Source: a virus | Virus record (IMG/VR): IMGVR_UViG_3300033141_003735 | Length of the DNA stretch: 50,972 nucleotides | Reading direction: 5' to 3' (one strand) | Part shown: positions 1,182 to 50,972 of the stretch, piece after piece | Position numbering within the stretch: the first letter of the stretch is position 1 | How the letters are laid out: each line of letters begins with the position of its first letter | Position numbers and translations under genes: made by a program | Notes under the pieces: generated by a model | The model's input: only the letters and a program-made list of their open reading frames with translations | Told to the model about the DNA's origin: nothing | Databases searched by the model: none

Positions 1182-2653
1182 TTGCCTCCTTTTATTGCAT
1201 CCTCGACTTCTTGTTTTAGGTCTTCTAAGTCCCCGATAATCCCAGCCTCCTTCTCAAATACTTGGTCAATAGCTCTGTATTTGCTGGATATAAAATACTG
1301 ATTGAGAAGCTCGTTTTCTTTTATCTTGTCATCTATTTGAATTCCTATAGCTTCCATGACTTGGATAGGTGTCATAGTCCCCATTTCAAATTTCTTCTGG
1401 TACTTTTCAAGTTCCCTGAGTTCATCTCTTATGTCCAGCTTTCTAAATACCAGGTCATAGGTCTCGTTTTTAAAGCACCCCCGGATTATTACCTTTGTAA
1501 ACAACCGCCCCATATCAGCTTTCAGCGGGTTTACAACTGAGTCAGCGTAAATCTCTGAACTTTCTTTTGCCGTGGAACCTCCCAGTGAGCCGACTTCAGC
1601 GATCCCGATTCTATAAGGAGGCATCCGGTATGGCACTAAGACCCGGTCTCTTAGCTTTTTATCCAGGTCTGCAAACGAACCCTCTTGGGTATTGCTCGAC
1701 TCCAACGGGACCCAAGTTATTTTCCCTTCTTTCGGGATCCTGAGGATTGCTACCTTGTGAGCATTTTCTGTGCCTTTTATGTTGGTATTCCAGAAATCAT
1801 TAAGTTTTTTCTCGGAATCTTTTTTCCATTTGCCCTCTAAGGCTATCCACCCTACGGGGATCCCGTAATTCTCAAAAAAGGACAGGTTATAATCCCTTAT
1901 ACCAACAAGTCCTCGGGCCGCTCCTACGGCAGGTAAGATGGGCGGTCTACCATAATAAGCCGACTGTTGGTAGTACTCCTTATAGAAGATAAGCTCATTT
2001 GCTGGATTGGAAACCTTTTTTTTCTCTTCTCCTGTATCCGCATCAACGTCCTTCTCATAGCCAAAAGTCTTAAACCATACTTTTTTATTCCTTCGCTCCT
2101 GGCAGTATTTATTACCGGATTTATGCACCCATAGAGTATGTGCCGGGACATTCCACATTCCTATAGGCTGGCTCTTGTCTCTAGCCAGCTCTATTCCCAT
2201 CCAGCCTATGCTCTCTAAATCTGTTATCGCATTCCTCACGATTTTATCAAAAGATTCGCCTTCGTTAAAATTAGGCTCTTCCAAAAACTTCTCTATCTTT
2301 TCTCTTTCCTTTTTACTCTCTTTTTTGCCTTCCCGGACTTTAAGCTCGTAGCCCTGGCTCACGATGTCTGTACCTATTTGATGAGCACAGGCATCGAAAT
2401 ACTCGCAATTATCCATAAGCCAGAGCAGACCTCTCACGTTAAAAGGGTGAGGAATAAGGTCTTTTTCGGTTAGGAATTTTATGTCTTCTTCTTTTATTTG
2501 TTTAGAGCTTTTTCCCCCCTGGTCTTTTTTTACTTTTATAGCCGACGGGTGGAACACTCCCTTTGTCGTCTTAAGGAAATAAACTTCCCCAATATCTTGT
2601 TCAGGTTTCAAAATAGATTTCTCCGTCCTCATCGTCTCCGTACTCATCATCAT
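1178..2653 (-). CDS. Portal protein
   Basis: 491 aa, immediately downstream of TerL and upstream of the Mu F-like gene. Call rests on size and synteny. Confidence 0.6.
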   Translation of the reverse strand: MMMSTETMRTEKSILKPEQDIGEVYFLKTTKGVFHPSAIKVKKDQGGKSSKQIKEEDIKFLTEKDLIPHPFNVRGLLWLMDNCEYFDACAHQIGTDIVSQGYELKVREGKKESKKEREKIEKFLEEPNFNEGESFDKIVRNAITDLESIGWMGIELARDKSQPIGMWNVPAHTLWVHKSGNKYCQERRNKKVWFKTFGYEKDVDADTGEEKKKVSNPANELIFYKEYYQQSAYYGRPPILPAVGAARGLVGIRDYNLSFFENYGIPVGWIALEGKWKKDSEKKLNDFWNTNIKGTENAHKVAILRIPKEGKITWVPLESSNTQEGSFADLDKKLRDRVLVPYRMPPYRIGIAEVGSLGGSTAKESSEIYADSVVNPLKADMGRLFTKVIIRGCFKNETYDLVFRKLDIRDELRELEKYQKKFEMGTMTPIQVMEAIGIQIDDKIKENELLNQYFISSKYRAIDQVFEKEAGIIGDLEDLKQEVEDAIKGGK

Positions 2654-3119
2654 ACTCCTGTCCTTTTATTTGCTCCCCCCTCTCTTCTTTTTCATCTTGG
2701 GGAGGAAGCCTTTTCCGTTTAAGGAACTTCTTAATCCGTTTATCTTTCTCCTCTTCAGTGAGGTCCCTAGCCTCTGTTTCAGGGCCAAAATACACCTGGC
2801 CTTCCTCTATCTCTTCCTCGGTCTGAGCCAAAGCATATATTACAGCTTCAGCATCATCCGGCGACCGACCCAACCTCTTTTTAATTTCAGGTTTGGGGAT
2901 GATTAGGATCTGGCCTGCTGAATTTATTTTATATTTGATTGAATTCAGTTGGCTTGCCAGCTCTGAGTCCTGGGGCAAATCAAGATAAGGGAGAATCTCC
3001 CGTAAGCCCCAGTGGATCTCCGAACGCAGGTTTTTGAATTTAATGGGGTCTCTGGGTTTTTTGGCTCCATTTATGCTTATAAGATTTATCTTTATCCTCA
3101 GCTTCCTCTGCCACTTGCT
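2601..3119 (-). CDS. terL: Terminase large subunit, C-terminal nuclease-domain fragment. The frame is open up to 3119, upstream of the annotated TTG at 2978.
   Basis: Translation ...LRIKINLISINGAKKPRDPIKFKNLRSEIHWGLREILPYLDLPQDSELASQLNSIKYKINSAGQILIIPKPEIKKRLGRSPDDAEAVIYA is a typical TerL C-terminal end. The frame is -1 relative to 3098..4060. Confidence 0.7.
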   Translation of the reverse strand, partial: SKWQRKLRIKINLISINGAKKPRDPIKFKNLRSEIHWGLREILPYLDLPQDSELASQLNSIKYKINSAGQILIIPKPEIKKRLGRSPDDAEAVIYALAQTEEEIEEGQVYFGPETEARDLTEEEKDKRIKKFLKRKRLPPQDEKEERGEQIKGQEYDDEYGDDEDGEIYFET

Positions 3120-44500: not shown

Positions 44501-44644
44501 ATGAAAAAAATTATTTTTAATTTCCGTATTGAGGTAGATGTATTAAACAAATTAAAAAAGCTAGGCAAGGAAAAAGACAGAAGCATAGGTTATTTAATAA
44601 GGAAAGCTGTTCATGAATACCTCAAAGAGAATAGAAAAGTATAA
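44501..44644 (+). CDS. Ribbon-helix-helix (CopG/Arc-like) small protein
   Basis: My translation: MKKIIFNFRIEVDVLNKLKKLGKEKDRSIGYLIRKAVHEYLKENRKV. Confidence 0.55.
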   Translation: MKKIIFNFRIEVDVLNKLKKLGKEKDRSIGYLIRKAVHEYLKENRKV

Positions 44645-45640
44645 AAATAGAGACTGGTTATATAAGAAGTATGTCATAGAAAAACTTTCTGCATGTGAGA
44701 TTCAAAGGATCTGTTCAGTCGGAAACGGTACAATAGAAAGGTGGCTGAGAAAGTTTGGCATTGAAATCAGAAGTTACAGCGAAGCAATTAAGCTAATAAG
44801 GAAAAATAAATATTGGCATAGTGGTAATTTATCAAAACAAAAGATACAAAAGTACAGGAATAAGAATTGGCTATACCAGAAATATTGGGTAGAAGGCTTA
44901 GACTCGGTGCAGATGGCCAAAATTGTGGGAACCCAATCTAATGTAATTATGAGCTGGATTAGGGCTTTTAATATAAAAGTAAAGCCCAAAGGTGAAAACC
45001 AAAGAGGGCGAAAACATTATATCAGAAGAGTCTAAGCTCTTGATTTCTATAAAAGCCAAGAAAAGATGGCAAAGTAAATCATACCGAAAGAAGATGTCAC
45101 TTGTATTAAAAGGTCTTCAAGCAGGAAAAAATAATCCTAATTACGGGGGAGTTTATTCGAGGAAGAGATCGGTTAAAGAAAAAATTAGCAAAGCAAATAA
45201 AGGAAGAAAGATTAGTGAAGAAGAAATGGCTAGGCGTATTCAGTCATGGAAAACAAGGCCTTCTAAATTAGAGAAGATGTTTGATGATATTACTCCTCCT
45301 GAAATTAGATATACAGGAGATGGAGCCTGGTGGAGAAAACTAGATGAATGGGCATTATCATAATCCAGATTTTAAAGTCACTGGCCAGAATAAAGTAATA
45401 GAAATTTGGGGTTCGCATTGGCATAAAAACGATGATGGGTATTATCTGATTAATTTATATAGAAGAGCTGGGTTAGATTGCTTAATCATAAAAGAGTCTG
45501 AATTCTATCCTTTGACTAATTCTCCCTCTAAAAGGATTTTAAATAAAAATAGAAGGCTTAAAATACAAAGGAAGGTAAGGGCGTTTGTGAATGATAGCCC
45601 TAGCCAGTTGTTGCTGTCCCCCCCATTGAAAATCCGTTGA
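44613..45640 (+). pseudogene. Free-standing homing endonuclease gene (HTH repeats, NUMOD3-like, Vsr/DUF559-like PD-(D/E)XK) broken into three frames
   Basis: There are two copies of the HTH module: WLYKKY..IQRICSV..GTIERWLRKFGIEIRSYSEA and WLYQKY..MAKIVGT... NUMOD3-like motifs GKNNPNYGG and ISKANKGRKISEE follow. The nuclease core is PSKLEKMF...YTGDG / HYHNPDFKV..KVIEIWGSHWH. Frame changes occur near 44990..45005 and 45340..45350. Confidence 0.6.
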
Positions 45641-48335
45641 ATTTGCCTTCAATTATATCATTCCAGATTTCTTTCTCGTCTCCCAAATAGACGGAGATAT
45701 ACCAATCACCAGATTTGACCAGGTGGTTGTCCCCAGTGCCTCCCTTGTGATGGTCTTCTTCGGCCTGGTAGCATTCAATGATTTTAGCTTTAATAGGTTT
45801 TCCCTCGTGCATCAGCTTGATTTTTCCGCCCTTTATCATAAACTTTTTTAACGCCTTCCATATCTCTGAAGCAGAAGCCGCATCTCCCTGGGTATCTACG
45901 TCGTTTGCTGAGTACACAATACCACCTACGATATACTCTTTTTTGTTCACCTTAAGGAATCTAAAATAAGGAGAATCATCTTTTTTTATTATTCTTTCCA
46001 GGGCTTTTTTTATTTTCTCAGCTAGGCTACTCCACCACTCTTCCCAGTTTTTCTCCCCATAGGACGTTTTGCCAGCCACTACGATTCTAGGTCTGTTCTC
46101 AGTCCCTATATCTGAGATAGAAAACAACCCTTCTGATTTATCGATTTCCTCGCTTACTTTTTCAGCAAGAGAATCTAGGTTCTGGTCTCTCATGCGAAAC
46201 ACCACAAAGGCTACACGGTCTTTATCTTTACCCTCATCTGTGCTTCTTATCTCTACATGTGCTAAAGAATTTAAGCCCTCAAGCCAGGCATCTTTAATGT
46301 GTTTATCCACCATCAGGCCTTTCCAATTTTTTTTAGGTGAATCAGTTCGACCGCTTAAGGGCTTGGAAGGAACGACACCATAAACAGCTTTATATGCAAG
46401 CGTTGGGGAGTTTATACGTTCTTGCTTATCAACCTCTTTTTTATGGTCATCGTCGTCTAGTTTTCTCATCATCCAAATGCGCTTACCTTCCTCTGTTGGC
46501 ACATACGCCATAAGCCAGTTGCCGTCAAAGTGCCGGCTATTGGTAACGTGGAACTTCTTGGCATGCTCGTCAGCCTGGTAAAGAGACCAATTAAACTTAT
46601 CGATTCTTAACATAGCCGCATACATGTTTGCAGTTGCACCAACTTCCCCAGGCTCAAATATCTCTAGTTTGTTAACACCTGCTTTAAACCAACTCATAGG
46701 GCCTCGAATTATATCGATTTTAGTTTCGCCTTTTCTGGGAACCTTCCACCCAAATCTCAAGCTCTGACCTTTTTTGTACCCATAAATTTTATTCAGCCCT
46801 GAGAGGTTGCCTATCATAATCTCTCCACCCTCCCAATATTTATCTTTCTTTCTATGGAACCGTATATCTATATGGGCGCCCTGCTCTCCGATTTTATTCT
46901 TTAAGAGCTTCTCAAGATTCCTAAGGTCACCTCTGGCTACTATAGCTCGGTCTTTAATGTCCAGAAGGCTCTCGAGTTCTTTTTCCTCTATGCCCATTAT
47001 ATGAAGCTGAGCTACAGCATCACCTGAGTCGCCTTCTTCAAAATCTATGTTTCCCTCTACACTAGCCGCACCCTCTTCGTCCTTTACCTTTTTGAATTTG
47101 ACATTACGGATTACAGTCTGGACTCCCTGGGGGTACTCGTACTCTTTGGGCAGTTTGTACTTATCTACCCAGTCGAATTCGTAAGACCAAAGACTTTTCT
47201 CTTTATCGAAGCCCCAGTCCTTAGCCTCCTTATCAGTTATCTTATGTTTTTCTTTAAGGTCTTGGAATTCTTTTTGAGTAATCTTTATGGGCTTGTGGAA
47301 TTTAACCTCTCCATAGCACAAATCTCCACTGCATAGGAAAACAGTTTTCTCAACATACTCATCTGGGAGCTTCTTAATCTTAATAACTAGGTTCTTATCC
47401 CCATCAAACATGTACTTGCCATGAGGTTCCTGAAGATATATTCCCCGTCCGGAACCAATTGCTTTCTGTAGGATATTAGCCTTCTCTGCGATTTGTACAA
47501 CCTGGTTAGCATAATAAGGCTCTTTCCTCGCCTCGTCTTTATCAATCACCCTTGGGCCTAGCCAATCCAGTTTATTCTCGCTTGGGATAATCTCCTCAAT
47601 GCCTATAGTCAAAATATCCCCTGGGCTAGCATTTATCTTTGTGTTAAATGTCTTGCCTAGGTTCACTAGCTCCATATCACCAACACGGGTTATGTTTTGG
47701 TAGGGGCTATCTCCTTTCAATACCCCGCAGGTGTAGTTGTAATTGCCTCCTTTTACACTGTGCTTCTCTATGACCATTACTTTTATCTCAGCCTCTATTT
47801 TAAGCTTAGCCCAGCCTTCTATGCTTCCATCTACATCCCATATGCTTTCGATATCCTTGACCACAATCCCTTCAGACTGGGGATATTTAGCAAACTTTTT
47901 AAACGCTTTTTCTAGCTCGCTTTTATTGTTTACGACCTGGGTCTCTGTTATTTTAAAATTTTTAGATGACTTAAGATATTTATTATAGAACTCCTCAAGT
48001 TTTTTTCTTCTTTCACTAAAAGGCAATAGGTGTAGGTCTTTTTTCCAGAAAGGCAAATCGAAAACGGTACAGACTATTATTTCTCCTTCCGTAAGCTCTG
48101 GTTTATCAGCCATTAAAGTCATAAGCTTAATTCGAGGCAAAGGCTTCCCGTTCTTTTCTATACCCACTCCCCCGTCAAGAATGTAATCATCAGGTATCTT
48201 AGCTAAAACCTCCGTCAATGAAGCAAACTCTTTTGTTCTATCCTTACCACCTTCAGTCTTTATGCGGAATCTATCTCCTAATTTTTCAGCTATGCATCTA
48301 AAAGAATTAAGCTTTGGCTCAGCCACAAGTCCCAT
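45600..48335 (-). CDS. Multidomain head-module protein: ATP-dependent ligase-like NTase plus OB domains (N-terminally truncated), central domains (possible ASCH-like and LigD phosphoesterase-like), and a C-terminal XkdF-type prohead protease
   Basis: Ligase motifs are I KLNSFR (variant), III ILDGGV (variant), IIIa FDLPFW...PFSERRKKLEEF, IV SEGIVVKD and V GWAKLK. The C-terminus YIVGGIVYSANDVDTQGDAASASEIWKALKKFM...SGDWYISVYLGDEKEIWNDIIEGKFNGFSMGGTA matches XkdF. Confidence 0.6.
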   Translation of the reverse strand: MGLVAEPKLNSFRCIAEKLGDRFRIKTEGGKDRTKEFASLTEVLAKIPDDYILDGGVGIEKNGKPLPRIKLMTLMADKPELTEGEIIVCTVFDLPFWKKDLHLLPFSERRKKLEEFYNKYLKSSKNFKITETQVVNNKSELEKAFKKFAKYPQSEGIVVKDIESIWDVDGSIEGWAKLKIEAEIKVMVIEKHSVKGGNYNYTCGVLKGDSPYQNITRVGDMELVNLGKTFNTKINASPGDILTIGIEEIIPSENKLDWLGPRVIDKDEARKEPYYANQVVQIAEKANILQKAIGSGRGIYLQEPHGKYMFDGDKNLVIKIKKLPDEYVEKTVFLCSGDLCYGEVKFHKPIKITQKEFQDLKEKHKITDKEAKDWGFDKEKSLWSYEFDWVDKYKLPKEYEYPQGVQTVIRNVKFKKVKDEEGAASVEGNIDFEEGDSGDAVAQLHIMGIEEKELESLLDIKDRAIVARGDLRNLEKLLKNKIGEQGAHIDIRFHRKKDKYWEGGEIMIGNLSGLNKIYGYKKGQSLRFGWKVPRKGETKIDIIRGPMSWFKAGVNKLEIFEPGEVGATANMYAAMLRIDKFNWSLYQADEHAKKFHVTNSRHFDGNWLMAYVPTEEGKRIWMMRKLDDDDHKKEVDKQERINSPTLAYKAVYGVVPSKPLSGRTDSPKKNWKGLMVDKHIKDAWLEGLNSLAHVEIRSTDEGKDKDRVAFVVFRMRDQNLDSLAEKVSEEIDKSEGLFSISDIGTENRPRIVVAGKTSYGEKNWEEWWSSLAEKIKKALERIIKKDDSPYFRFLKVNKKEYIVGGIVYSANDVDTQGDAASASEIWKALKKFMIKGGKIKLMHEGKPIKAKIIECYQAEEDHHKGGTGDNHLVKSGDWYISVYLGDEKEIWNDIIEGKFNGFSMGGTATTG

Positions 48336-48885
48336 CGTCTTTTACCTCTAATTTTCCTAATAATAATTGATTTTCATATTCTAAAATTGAAATCCTTTCC
48401 TCTAATTCTTTAATCTTTTTCTTCATTGTGTTTATTTGGACATGATTGGCTTGGTTAGGTAATAACTCAAGATTTTCTATTCTATTATCATCTTTAATTC
48501 CATTTTTATGATGAACTACTTCCCAGGTTTCGAGACACCTTCCTAAATACTTTGCCATAACCAAACGATGTTCTCTGATATAACCATGATGATCAGCCAT
48601 TGGATAGAAAGGACTTTCTTCTTTTAGATTAATATATATATAACCTTCTTTTGTTTTAAGCTTCCCGCCTTTCCACCTTGGGTGGTCTTCTCGTTTATAG
48701 CCTATATTATTAAAAAGTTTTCTGCTACACTTAGCACAATGACCAGTATAATTAGGTCGATTCATTTTATTTAATTGAACCCATCGTTTCGAACCACAAT
48801 TTGGGCATATTACTAATCCATATTTATTCGAACCCTTTTTTCCTATTTCAAAGGGTCTCTTAACGTCTATAATTTCATTGTTCAT
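48319..48885 (-). CDS. HNH homing endonuclease inserted within the ligase-like coding region
   Basis: HHGYIREHRLVMAKYLGRCLETWEVVHHKNGIKDDNRIENLELLPNQANH is the HNH motif, with an N-terminal CPNC...CAKC zinc finger. The ORF starts 1 nt after the upstream stop and overlaps the downstream ATG by 17 nt. Confidence 0.8.
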   Translation of the reverse strand: MNNEIIDVKRPFEIGKKGSNKYGLVICPNCGSKRWVQLNKMNRPNYTGHCAKCSRKLFNNIGYKREDHPRWKGGKLKTKEGYIYINLKEESPFYPMADHHGYIREHRLVMAKYLGRCLETWEVVHHKNGIKDDNRIENLELLPNQANHVQINTMKKKIKELEERISILEYENQLLLGKLEVKDDGTCG

Positions 48886-48886
48886 T

Positions 48887-50089
48887 TCAAATCCTTTCTT
48901 TAGCCCAGTCCCATATCTGCTCTACTGTAAACGCCTCCGTATGAGTTAGAAAGCCGCTCATAGCAGGCTTAGGTGGAACAAACTCCCCAAACGGGGTAAG
49001 CTCTTTTTCCTTTTTAACCTTTGTCATCACGGCCAATGCTGTGTTTGAGGATTTTATAAGCTGAGACGACCAGCCCTTGCTTAGAATCTTTTTAAATTCA
49101 GTTAGGTTCTTGTACTCATGTTTATGGGTGGGGTCTTGTCTTTCGCCCAGAGGTACTATGACTATAGCTTTTTTCCTAGCCACTCTCTCCATTTCTTTAG
49201 CCAAAGACTTTGGATTGGTTACGTGTTCCAGCACATGGACTGCTGTCACGTTGTCAAATGAGTTATCTTCAAAAGGGATTCCTTTGTCTAAGTCATGCTC
49301 TTTGATATCGAGCTTCTTACCCCTTGCCATTTTAATAGCAGTTCTATCTACATCCACTCCCAGGACGTCCCTTCCATCTCCTTCCAGGAGCTTAAGAAGT
49401 TTTCCCGAACCGCAGCCTATGTCCAGAACCGAGCCTTTGCTTAGATTCTCAAGCACATGAGCATTGTCACAAAGAAGGCCTACATCCCAACTCTCTAATC
49501 CCTCATAATAATCCGCTGCTCTTTTAAGTTTAGCCTGTACGCTTTCCTTAACGTAAACTCTCTTAAGATTAGGTTTGACCCGAGCTACTAAATCAAAGAC
49601 AGGAATATAAGTGCTGTGAGGCCCACGAGGTGCATATACAAAATGCAAGTCTTTCTTTATTTGCCTCTTCAAGACCCTGCCTATTTTAAGCTCAAGGCCT
49701 TCGTCTCTATTTCTTGCATACTCCCGGATTATGATATCTAGGTCATTAGCTTCTCTCGGTCTCTTGACAAACGACCCCCCAATAGAAATATAGTCGTTTA
49801 CTATTACCTGGTCTCCTATGCTTTTAATATCAATTCCCGTCATGGCTTTTCTGAACGCCTCAATGTCCAAATCAGTTGTAGTGTGATGAGTGAGATTCCT
49901 CTTGTTCATCTCTCTTATGAGGATTTGATACTTGTCTATAAATTCAAAGCGGTCTAGTCCGCCGACCTCCCCACCTTCTCGGCCCTTGAGGTTCTTGTTA
50001 TAGAGCTGTATAAATCTAAGGCGCATGTTATATAGTTCTTTATCATTCTCCTTTTTGATTGATTTTGCTGTAATATTCTCTATTTCCAT
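48887..50089 (-). CDS. Pol-beta-type nucleotidyltransferase plus class I SAM methyltransferase protein, ending in the N-terminal segment of the ligase-like domain (start revised to MEIEN at 50089)
   Basis: ISIGGSFVKRPREANDLDIIIRE fits the GS-x10-DxD NTase motif. VLDIGCGSGKLLKLLEGDGRDVLGVDVD...VHVLEHV is the SAM MTase. The C-terminus is FVPPKPAMSGFLTHTEAFTVEQIWDWAKERI. Confidence 0.55.
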   Translation of the reverse strand: MEIENITAKSIKKENDKELYNMRLRFIQLYNKNLKGREGGEVGGLDRFEFIDKYQILIREMNKRNLTHHTTTDLDIEAFRKAMTGIDIKSIGDQVIVNDYISIGGSFVKRPREANDLDIIIREYARNRDEGLELKIGRVLKRQIKKDLHFVYAPRGPHSTYIPVFDLVARVKPNLKRVYVKESVQAKLKRAADYYEGLESWDVGLLCDNAHVLENLSKGSVLDIGCGSGKLLKLLEGDGRDVLGVDVDRTAIKMARGKKLDIKEHDLDKGIPFEDNSFDNVTAVHVLEHVTNPKSLAKEMERVARKKAIVIVPLGERQDPTHKHEYKNLTEFKKILSKGWSSQLIKSSNTALAVMTKVKKEKELTPFGEFVPPKPAMSGFLTHTEAFTVEQIWDWAKERI

Positions 50090-50090
50090 T

Positions 50091-50972
50091 TTACACCACC
50101 GCTGTGAACGTACATTCGCAGTTATGACTTGCAATATTATTAGCAATGTACCAATGGTTTTTGGTTTGCAAATTATATACATATCCGGTATAATATTCAG
50201 TATGGACACTAATGACTTTATCGAACTTTATAGGAAAGGGTTGTCCATTTATAAAATTGCTAATATCTATGGAGTTAGCCCCTCTTGGGTCTATTTCGTA
50301 GTTAAAAGAGCTGGGGTTAATAGGACACGCTCCGAGGCTTTGCGTCTCCAACCTAGGGAAAGATTTGTTGCCATGTCTAAAAAAGCAGTAATTGCTCGTC
50401 AAGGACGCGGACGGGAAATTACTTTTGCCGAACGGTTGCGTAGAGCCAAAACCCGTGAACTTAGACAATCCGCCACCGGCCCCACTGAAAAATTGGTTGT
50501 CATTGCTCTTAGCAAAAAAGGAATTCATGGTGTAGCCCAAAAGGCTATTGGTCCCTATAATTGCGACTTGGCCGTCGGGACTAACATCGCCGTGGAAATC
50601 CTCAGCACTTATTTTCGTTTTTACGGTAAGCGTAGACTTAGAGAGGAAAAACGACTCCGCAATTTGCTCAATTGGGGCTGGAATATAATTTATATTCTTC
50701 TTAATCCGCGAAATCCAGTTATAACCAACGTCCAAAGAGATAACGTAGTCTCCAAGATTCAAGAAATTAATAGGCACCCAACCGAAATTACTCAATACTG
50801 GATGATTGGGAGTAGCGGTCAGATTCTTGCCAGTGGTGGTTTTAATGATGATAACATCTCCCTCGTACCACCTTTTCGTAACTCCAGAGATCCTGCCACA
50901 GGGAGATACAAGAGAGTCCCCAGGTAGACAGTTCGGATGAACTGGAATTACCCCCTGTGCCTCATCAATCGT
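50091..50972 (-). CDS. Mu F/SPP1 gp7-like head morphogenesis protein, 3' portion: end of N-extein, 270-aa intein and 9-aa C-extein (CECTFTAVV)
   Basis: Continuous minus-strand frame ...TIDEAQGVIPVHPN|CLPGDSLV...NIASHN|CECTFTAVV*. Joins 1..906 through the terminal repeat. Confidence 0.8.
   Translation of the reverse strand, partial: TIDEAQGVIPVHPNCLPGDSLVSPCGRISGVTKRWYEGDVIIIKTTTGKNLTATPNHPVLSNFGWVPINFLNLGDYVISLDVGYNWISRIKKNINYIPAPIEQIAESFFLSKSTLTVKTKISAEDFHGDVSPDGQVAIIGTNSLLGYTMNSFFAKSNDNQFFSGAGGGLSKFTGFGSTQPFGKSNFPSASLTSNYCFFRHGNKSFPRLETQSLGACPINPSSFNYEIDPRGANSIDISNFINGQPFPIKFDKVISVHTEYYTGYVYNLQTKNHWYIANNIASHNCECTFTAVV
50166..50194 (+). promoter_or_regulatory. Sigma-70-type promoter (TTGCAA-17-TATAAT) antisense to intein block F, 7 nt upstream of the plus-strand ATG
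   Basis: TTGCAA at 50166..50171 and TATAAT at 50189..50194. ATG at 50202 with no Shine-Dalgarno site, implying a leaderless mRNA. Confidence 0.55.
50202..50927 (+). CDS. HTH plus Vsr/DUF559-like PD-(D/E)XK homing endonuclease encoded antisense, entirely within the intein
   Basis: The HTH is MDTNDFIELYRKGLSIYKIANIYGVSPSWVYFVVKRAGVNRTRSEA. The nuclease core is TGPTEKLVVIALSKKGIHGVAQKAIGPYNCDLAVGTNIAVEILSTYFRFYGKRRLREEKRLRNLLNWGWNIIYI. It shares the module family of 44613..45640. Confidence 0.65.
   Translation: MDTNDFIELYRKGLSIYKIANIYGVSPSWVYFVVKRAGVNRTRSEALRLQPRERFVAMSKKAVIARQGRGREITFAERLRRAKTRELRQSATGPTEKLVVIALSKKGIHGVAQKAIGPYNCDLAVGTNIAVEILSTYFRFYGKRRLREEKRLRNLLNWGWNIIYILLNPRNPVITNVQRDNVVSKIQEINRHPTEITQYWMIGSSGQILASGGFNDDNISLVPPFRNSRDPATGRYKRVPR

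Follow-up and report, generated by a model that had tools for sequence, protein, structure and literature searches.

We found that a phage polyprotein gene is interrupted, within the coding region of its ligase-like domain, by a free-standing gene for an HNH homing endonuclease. The interrupted gene lies in IMG/VR virus record IMGVR_UViG_3300033141_003735, the whole 50,972-nucleotide (nt) stretch of which is referred to here as the window. All genes in this part of the window are on the minus strand, with the endonuclease gene standing between an upstream and a downstream piece of the polyprotein (Table 1). We consider it probable that the endonuclease gene inserted into the gene for a head-associated polyprotein and left it as genes in pieces, expressed as three cistrons, with the two fragments of the polyprotein reassembling. 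A preliminary description of the same DNA had offered two readings, in which the domain is either made as two polypeptides after invasion by a homing endonuclease or encoded around a self-splicing intron that holds the HNH open reading frame (ORF). The former is borne out by relatives in which the gene is continuous, by the scatter of split alleles across a phylogenetic tree, by a co-converted patch around the endonuclease gene and by separate translation signals for each piece, while the intron did not survive the comparisons described below. The observed arrangement lies far beyond chance expectation.

Continuity of the gene was assessed in 97 loci obtained from scans of IMG/VR and JGI metagenome contigs, and the reading frame is unbroken at the split site in 89 of them (78 distinct sequences). 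These uninterrupted homologs run continuously across ...PPKPTM..TEAF..DI..W.KD[KR]WPVDVEEKLNGFR..., and a search with the rejoined junction found two sequences (P0009 and P0001) with ...PPKPTMA.ITEAF.F.DI..WIKDKWPV.VEEKLNGFRCIAEK... as one uninterrupted chain. The whole protein is a single polyprotein of 1,113 amino acids in L004 and L005, composed of a nucleotidyltransferase (NTase), a methyltransferase, the ligase-like domain, a middle region and an XkdF protease. The closest relatives of the window are themselves uninterrupted (L007, 77% identity; L008, 73%), the site in L007-type sequences reading ...TGGGCTAAGGATAGAAAGCTCATGGCTGAGCCAAAGCTAAACGG..., and a distant clade with canonical KYDGxR in motif I (L024-L032) retains the PP.KP...E.F segment ahead of that motif.

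Alignment with the uninterrupted homologs located the insertion point, the summed window pieces exceeding the continuous forms by one or two residues that correspond to the restart Met or Met-Gly. The upstream piece aligns with the N-terminal part of the continuous polyproteins L004, L006 and L007. Its end had been proposed to be the segment that precedes motif I in ligases, which the alignment with uninterrupted homologs confirmed, and its C-terminal 30 amino acids do align to ligase N-termini. In Pfam, the PF01068 match on the rejoined sequence (E = 5.5e-19) stopped short of the upstream tail, beginning at profile position 20 compared with 22. Because only two profile positions were gained, the ligase identity of the tail was taken from the homolog alignment, and judged by these homologous sequences the question is settled in favor of the tail as the start of the ligase domain.

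The upstream ORF begins with ATG at 50089 and ends with TGA at 48889..48887, has the C-terminus ...FVPPKPAMSGFLTHTEAFTVEQIWDWAKERI immediately before that stop, and contains a Methyltransf_11 match (E = 7e-20). A single base (48886) separates its stop from the ATG of the HNH ORF at 48885, in the arrangement TGA-A-ATG, a distance that appears close enough for translational coupling. The HNH ORF ends at 48321..48319, is read in a frame that differs from those of both neighbors, and overlaps by 17 nt the downstream ORF, whose ATG is at 48335. The preliminary description, which had reported a complete HNH gene 1 nt after the upstream stop with its own AAGGA Shine-Dalgarno site and a 17-nt overlap downstream, was right in all of these coordinates and numbers. 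The HNH protein is laid out as a zinc ribbon, an HNH domain and a C-terminal coiled coil. It matches PF13392 (HNH_3; E = 2.6e-12) at residues 106-148 (VVHHKNG...NRIENLELL...NH) with the catalytic motif intact, also matches HNH endonuclease families in PHROG, and has 3,774 homologs of about 180 amino acids each.

The downstream ORF has the N-terminus MGLVAEPK (opening sequence MGLVAEPKLNSFRC) and begins seven residues before the motif I lysine, as had been described earlier. Its Lys8 aligns with the ligase lysine: in phmmer alignments EPKLNSFR of the window pairs with EIKYDGAR of solved archaeal ligases, with the lysine on the motif I lysine. Pfam matches to the ATP-dependent DNA ligase domain (PF01068, E = 1e-17) cover downstream residues 3-179 and profile positions 22-204, and the C-terminus matches the XkdF-type prohead protease (PF14550, E = 2e-16). 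Since megablast of 45600..50089 against 50,697 GenBank phage records returned no match, these records hold no annotated close phage relative at the DNA level.

An AlphaFold2 (AF2) model of the rejoined 330 residues (mean predicted local distance difference test score, pLDDT, 87.5; predicted template-modeling score 0.80) places a strand at 9-15, a helix at 27-35 and the break at 38/39, in a short loop before the strand at 41-47 that carries Lys46. Because the break sits between this helix and this strand, the HNH gene cuts a single fold about eight codons upstream of the catalytic lysine. Foldseek matched the model to the NTase and OB core of LIG1, LIG4, archaeal and T4 ligases with probability 1.00 and template-modeling (TM) scores of up to 0.72 (0.66-0.72 to LIG1). 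The window thus shares with the ATP-dependent DNA ligase core (PF01068; human LIG1, archaeal and T4 ligases) the fold, the motif I lysine and motifs III, IV and V. It differs in that its motif I (48297..48314) reads KLNSFR, whereas these DNA ligases have KxDGxR, and in that the domain is embedded in a phage polyprotein together with a methyltransferase and an XkdF protease. KLNSFR is also found in L098 and in the uninterrupted L044. Motif I in the clade takes the form K[LY]NG[FI]R, and its consensus is K[LY]NGFR, with Asn for Asp in 66 of the 78 distinct sequences (L003-L092), and a distant sister clade (L024-L032, L093-L095) keeps KYDGxR. Some Trl1-type RNA ligases use a KxNG motif I, so that Asn in place of Asp need not mean an inactive enzyme. 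Motifs I (K), III (FDLP), IV (SEGIVVK) and V (WAKLK) and the OB domain are intact in the window, L098 and L002.

Only four loci are split at this junction: the window, L098, L099 and L002, with L098 and L099 being an identical sequence from two samples. In L098/L099 an orthologous HNH gene (74% amino acid identity) occurs at the same codon and in the same orientation as in the window; the upstream piece ends in ...CKERI before its stop, the downstream piece opens with MGIVVEPKLNSFRC, and AAGGAGG precedes the restart. The corresponding ends in L002 are ...AKDRI and MGLEVEQKLNGFRC, and the gap holds an unrelated classical HNH gene of 143 amino acids (PF01844 / HNH_5) on the opposite strand. The immediate upstream stop and the ATG-GGA restart are conserved in all three split alleles (window, L098 and L002), as is the upstream tail, and these alleles are only 60-70% identical to each other. 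A neighbor-joining tree of 290 residues from motif I onward placed the three alleles in three clades that are otherwise uninterrupted, the window grouping with L007, L008 and L033.

The same polyprotein gene has a second split site, at ligase motif III (FDLPY/W), which we found in L023, L001 and P0006. A NUMOD3-HNH gene lies between the motif III halves in L023 (863..1531). In L001 (3957..4072) no more than about 115 nt separate the halves (tail FSGEIPQ... up to its stop, head MPKLTNPDLH), as though an endonuclease had been lost and the split retained. Elsewhere in the gene, the methyltransferase gene of L003 (249..1988) ends in a domain that is ADP-ribosyltransferase-like by eye, and its ligase-protease gene starts about 30 amino acids before PPKP. 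In L014 (1657..2388) an inserted ORF of 244 amino acids, PP-loop-like by eye, separates the NTase from the methyltransferase; L079 (~2445..3058) carries about 610 nt inserted in frame close to motif III, without a Pfam match; and L004 has a Cys-rich (Zn-ribbon) insert before the ligase domain. The polyprotein is thus highly modular among relatives.

The flanks of the endonuclease gene carry a record of recombination. In a sliding comparison the window keeps 80-92% identity to L007 over nearly the entire protein, but from about residue -6 to +60 at the junction its identity to L007 drops to 35-52% and its identity to L098 climbs to 82-90%. Where L007 and L098 differ, the window agrees with L098 at 27 of 29 sites in -3..+56 compared with 17 of 171 outside (Fisher p = 1.2e-19). 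The backbone of L098 is L010-like, but within -13..+56 it agrees with the window at 24 of 25 sites (p = 1.8e-19). At the nucleotide level, window and L098 are 75.5% identical in the HNH gene; their identity is 76-77% in the flanks next to it and 57-61% in those further out. Since the mosaic sites and the segment identities agree, the HNH gene and its short flanks share one history that is separate from both host genomes. The patch is the co-conversion signature expected of endonuclease-driven homing, and the tract fits the location of nuclease genes at boundaries of genetic exchange in phages (PMC10448857). Its ends fall on the PPKP and GKPLPRIKLMTLMADKP stretches, whose strong conservation makes them natural crossover points.

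The mechanism that we favor begins with insertion of the HNH gene into the loop between the first helix of the ligase fold and the strand of the motif I lysine, without an intron or intein. The cassette provides the upstream stop, its own ribosome-binding site and start near that stop for coupling, and a ribosome-binding site and ATG within its 3' end for the downstream part. Because the cassette provides these signals, we infer expression as three cistrons on one late transcript, giving a 400-amino-acid N-piece, the endonuclease and a 911-amino-acid C-piece. An active endonuclease would presumably nick or cut uninterrupted alleles of co-infecting relatives, and repair would then copy the HNH gene with short flanks by co-conversion, which would place the same cassette in two phage backbones. 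From the asymmetry of the tract, the cut would be expected on the downstream side of the insertion point. The 38-residue strand-helix tail of the N-piece may dock non-covalently on the C-piece and so restore the ligase-like domain.

A group I intron around the HNH ORF, like that of I-HmuI in the SPO1 DNA polymerase gene, would instead restore one protein by splicing, with ...AAAGAAAGGATT joined to GGACTTGTGGCT (RNA junction ...AAGGATT to GGACTTGTG...). HNH_3 endonucleases are known in phage group I introns, e.g. I-HmuI and I-HmuII (PMC2988022), the insertion adjoins a conserved active-site motif, and the last base would be U in a supposed 5' exon and G in the insert. However, the covariance-model search for a group I intron that the preliminary description had proposed found no group I or group II intron in Rfam, either in 47800..49400 at E <= 10 or in L002, L098, L023 and L001 at E <= 1, the only matches being obvious chance ones (snoR127, HOTAIR_2 and Tombus_3_III). 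Excess RNA structure was likewise absent from the 621-nt region, which folds no better than shuffled sequence (minimum free energy z = 0.16). The insert of about 557 nt is entirely ORF, with 1 nt before it and 17 nt running into the downstream ORF, and the downstream ribosome-binding site and ATG, like the immediate upstream stop, are conserved in three diverged alleles. Because the HNH gene of L002 is unrelated and on the opposite strand, the inserts of the window and L002 share no sequence from which a common ribozyme core could be built. Together these results make an intron very improbable. Read-through of the upstream TGA was also considered and ruled out, as the same frame stops again three codons on.

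Nor is it at all likely that two genes were ancestral and that the endonuclease landed in the spacer between them, the usual location of free-standing homing endonuclease genes in phages. In favor of this, the ends (RI before the stop, MG[LI] after the restart) are the same in L002, L098 and the window, and L003 divides the polyprotein elsewhere, into a methyltransferase-ADP-ribosyltransferase gene followed by a ligase-protease gene with a boundary about 30 amino acids further upstream. Yet 78 distinct relatives, the nearest included, are continuous at the site, each split allele sits in a separate clade amid continuous genes, and the boundary falls inside a single fold, between the first helix and the catalytic strand. 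No locus has both ends as separate genes without an endonuclease between them. A still more remote idea, to which we attach almost no weight, is that of a fractured gene in which split-intein halves rejoin the protein by trans-splicing around an intervening endonuclease gene. Such arrangements occur in environmental phage-like sequences (PMC2677866), and the gene adjacent to the polyprotein gene holds an intein, but the pieces have only one or two extra residues relative to continuous homologs, which leaves no space for an N-intein (about 100 amino acids) and a C-intein (about 35), and Pfam gave no Hint or intein signal in either piece.

A more substantial, though still unlikely, alternative accepts the same origin and holds that the ligase-like domain is dead in the split alleles, with the methyltransferase and protease pieces working alone and keeping the arrangement in place. 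The downstream ORF would be translated anyway for its XkdF protease domain and, because that domain needs the ORF, an intact downstream ORF is no proof of ligase activity. Motif I is degenerate relative to KxDGxR, and the detached tail was modeled with moderate confidence only. Against a dead domain, motifs I, III, IV and V and the OB domain are kept in the window, L098 and L002 despite divergence to 60-70% identity, the upstream tail is conserved in the split alleles as well, and KLNSFR also occurs in the uninterrupted L044, with KxNG being the norm of the clade. Conservation of motifs, OB domain and tail in three diverged split alleles, together with tolerance of a second split at motif III, suggests that the split enzyme may still be functional.

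Several points nevertheless weigh against a homing insertion whose products reassemble. We infer that there is one transcript, that its translation is coupled and that the pieces reassemble. The detached tail is modeled by AF2 at only moderate confidence (pLDDT 56-74), which limits what the model says on how firmly it packs against the domain. Motif I is non-canonical (KLNSFR), and a dispensable domain might be reason enough for the split to be tolerated. From the mosaic it is proved that the cassette recombined together with its flanks, but not that the endonuclease of the window caused this. The different HNH gene of L002 at the identical junction (RI before the stop, MGL after it) means either that an older split site was used again or that the same position was hit independently. 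A more detailed proposal, which we advance tentatively and regard as somewhat doubtful in its entirety, is that the mobile unit is a cassette of about 770 bp consisting of the split junction and 57 codons bearing motif I, which phage lineages trade by crossing over in PPKP and GKPLPRIKLMTLMADKP; that the split site persists as a landing pad for unrelated HNH genes in either orientation (window/L098 compared with L002); and that the two-piece domain is active through the 38-residue tail of the methyltransferase protein complementing in trans.

Putative homing genes are also associated with the neighbors of the polyprotein gene. The upstream neighbor (50091..>50972, minus strand) carries an intein (PF14890; CLPGDSLV ... 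SHN/CECTF) and, by analogy with L001, whose equivalent gene matches Pfam Phage_Mu_F, may be the C-terminal part of a MuF-type head protein. Inside the intein, a plus-strand ORF of 240 amino acids (50205..50927) has helix-turn-helix (HTH) matches and a weak match to MTES_1575, a Vsr-like nuclease. Its 14 homologs include one labeled very-short-patch-repair endonuclease, and its AF2 model (pLDDT 87.2) has the I-Bth0305I catalytic domain as best PDB match (3r3p, probability 1.00, TM 0.63 on target). The homing endonuclease of the intein is predicted to be encoded on the antisense strand, with an HTH and a Vsr/EDxHD-like nuclease domain.

This two-strand arrangement is present in eight diverged loci with 43-64% GC, both frames being open over about 720 nt and the intein and endonuclease frames lying codon-on-codon. 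The codons TTA, CTA and TCA, which are stops on the intein strand, are absent from all eight endonuclease ORFs, compared with a background of 4.4% (P ~2e-5 per locus). In less saturated pairs, substitutions peak at the third codon position of the endonuclease and its amino acid identity is above that of the sense frame (e.g. 0.75 vs. 0.64). Since substitution pattern and amino acid identity favor the endonuclease frame, it is the antisense protein that is under selection, the intein strand merely being kept open. A full-text literature search found no description of an intein with an antisense-encoded endonuclease.

Between the protease-bearing and scaffold-like genes, and antisense to them, three consecutive ORFs occupy three frames of the plus strand (44613..45640), a region that overlaps the 3' end of the 911-amino-acid ORF by 41 nt. 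They encode 140 amino acids with two HTH-like repeats, 123 amino acids that are NUMOD-like by eye (no Pfam match) and 98 amino acids with an EIWGSHWH nuclease-like motif. The region resembles a third homing endonuclease gene that has either degenerated through two frameshifts or is made in pieces.

Table 1 Features of the divided polyprotein gene and loci with the antisense arrangement.
Feature	Coordinates	Strand	Content or basis
Upstream piece, 400 amino acids	48887..50089	-	NTase-like N-terminus, S-adenosylmethionine methyltransferase, first strand and helix of ligase-like fold
Last 38 codons of upstream piece (LTPFGEFVPPKPAMSGFLTHTEAFTVEQIWDWAKERI)	48890..49003	-	N-terminal strand and helix of ligase NTase domain, severed from remainder of domain; alignments and AF2
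AAGGA Shine-Dalgarno of HNH gene	48892..48896	-	Within end of upstream ORF, six bases before HNH ATG; read from sequence
Free-standing HNH_3 homing endonuclease gene, 188 amino acids	48319..48885	-	PF13392, PHROG HNH families, ortholog in L098/L099
GAGGT Shine-Dalgarno of downstream piece	48344..48348	-	Inside 3' end of HNH ORF, 8 nt before ATG at 48335; read from sequence
Downstream piece, 911 amino acids	45600..48335	-	Rest of ligase-like NTase and OB domain (~47460..48335), middle region, C-terminal XkdF-type prohead protease
Motif I lysine codon, Lys8 of downstream piece	48312..48314	-	phmmer alignment to PDB ligases 3rr5 and 2cfm; family alignment
Recombination / co-conversion tract	48165..48930	-	HNH gene with up to ~40 nt upstream and ~170 nt downstream flank including motif I; informative-site mosaic
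Loci with antisense arrangement	window 50091..50972; L007 42..983; L041 497..1525; L017 2..1066; L096 155..1894; L104 1692..4238; L105 2866..3819; L107 1140..2117		Two-strand ORFs

Enzymes made as genes in pieces by a free-standing homing endonuclease are already known (PMC2988022): nrdA of Aeromonas phage Aeh1 holds mobE, the T4 topoisomerase gene 39/60 holds mobA, and gene 43 of Aeromonas phage 25 is interrupted by a seg-like gene. As outlined for Aeh1 (Friedrich et al. 2007, cited through PMC2988022 and PMC10448857), mobE is likewise a free-standing HNH gene inside a critical coding region. It leaves the gene in two ORFs, with its own start overlapping the upstream stop or coupled to it, and relatives carry the gene uninterrupted. 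In that outline the host gene encodes ribonucleotide reductase, whereas in the window it encodes the ligase-like domain of a head-associated polyprotein and the endonuclease is an HNH_3 protein with a zinc ribbon. The function of the split product was demonstrated for Aeh1, while for the window it is a prediction. Unlike Aeh1 as described in these sources, the window has the same cassette in two backbones with a mapped tract, and an unrelated second HNH gene at the site in L002. In T4 gene 39/60 and phage 25 gene 43 the endonuclease similarly lies between enzyme halves that relatives make as one polypeptide and that are believed to reassemble, but the enzymes and endonuclease families differ from those of the window. 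It is uncertain for phage 25 gene 43 that the endonuclease caused the split, and the same uncertainty applies to L002.

Ribozyme-borne phage HNH endonucleases resemble the window in their insertion by a conserved catalytic motif and in the co-conversion of flanking markers. They sit inside a self-splicing ribozyme, however, whereas the window has no detectable ribozyme and its pieces have their own translation signals; its HNH protein is probably of the nicking type, as assumed from its family. Fractured genes with split inteins (Dassa et al. 2009, PMC2677866) also consist of adjacent half-genes with an intervening endonuclease gene in environmental phage-like DNA. Unlike them, the protein of the window is not covalently rejoined, because there are no intein halves at the break. 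In a survey of polyvalent proteins (PMC5512222) the architecture of the window polyprotein is absent, with no XkdF, and ligases appear only as ATP-grasp RNA ligases that are unrelated to the window domain.

What is new here is the host gene, the ligase-like part of a head-associated polyprotein, together with a break eight codons from the catalytic lysine, a cassette mapped in two backbones and an unrelated HNH gene in opposite orientation at the same junction. In annotation, the two ORFs should be treated as halves of a single gene, with no intron placed between them. The locus is a well-documented natural case of a homing endonuclease dividing an enzyme fold right at its active site, and because donor-like and recipient-like alleles are both at hand, the co-conversion tract can be read straight from the sequences. 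Fragment complementation in the ligase/capping-enzyme fold could likewise be studied on this natural example, in which a 38-residue strand-helix would be supplied in trans. More broadly, these results highlight a widespread, undescribed phage polyprotein, combining an NTase, a methyltransferase, a KxNG ligase-like domain and an XkdF protease, whose gene has been repeatedly invaded, with two split sites (before motif I and at motif III), inserts elsewhere in some relatives and an intein next door.

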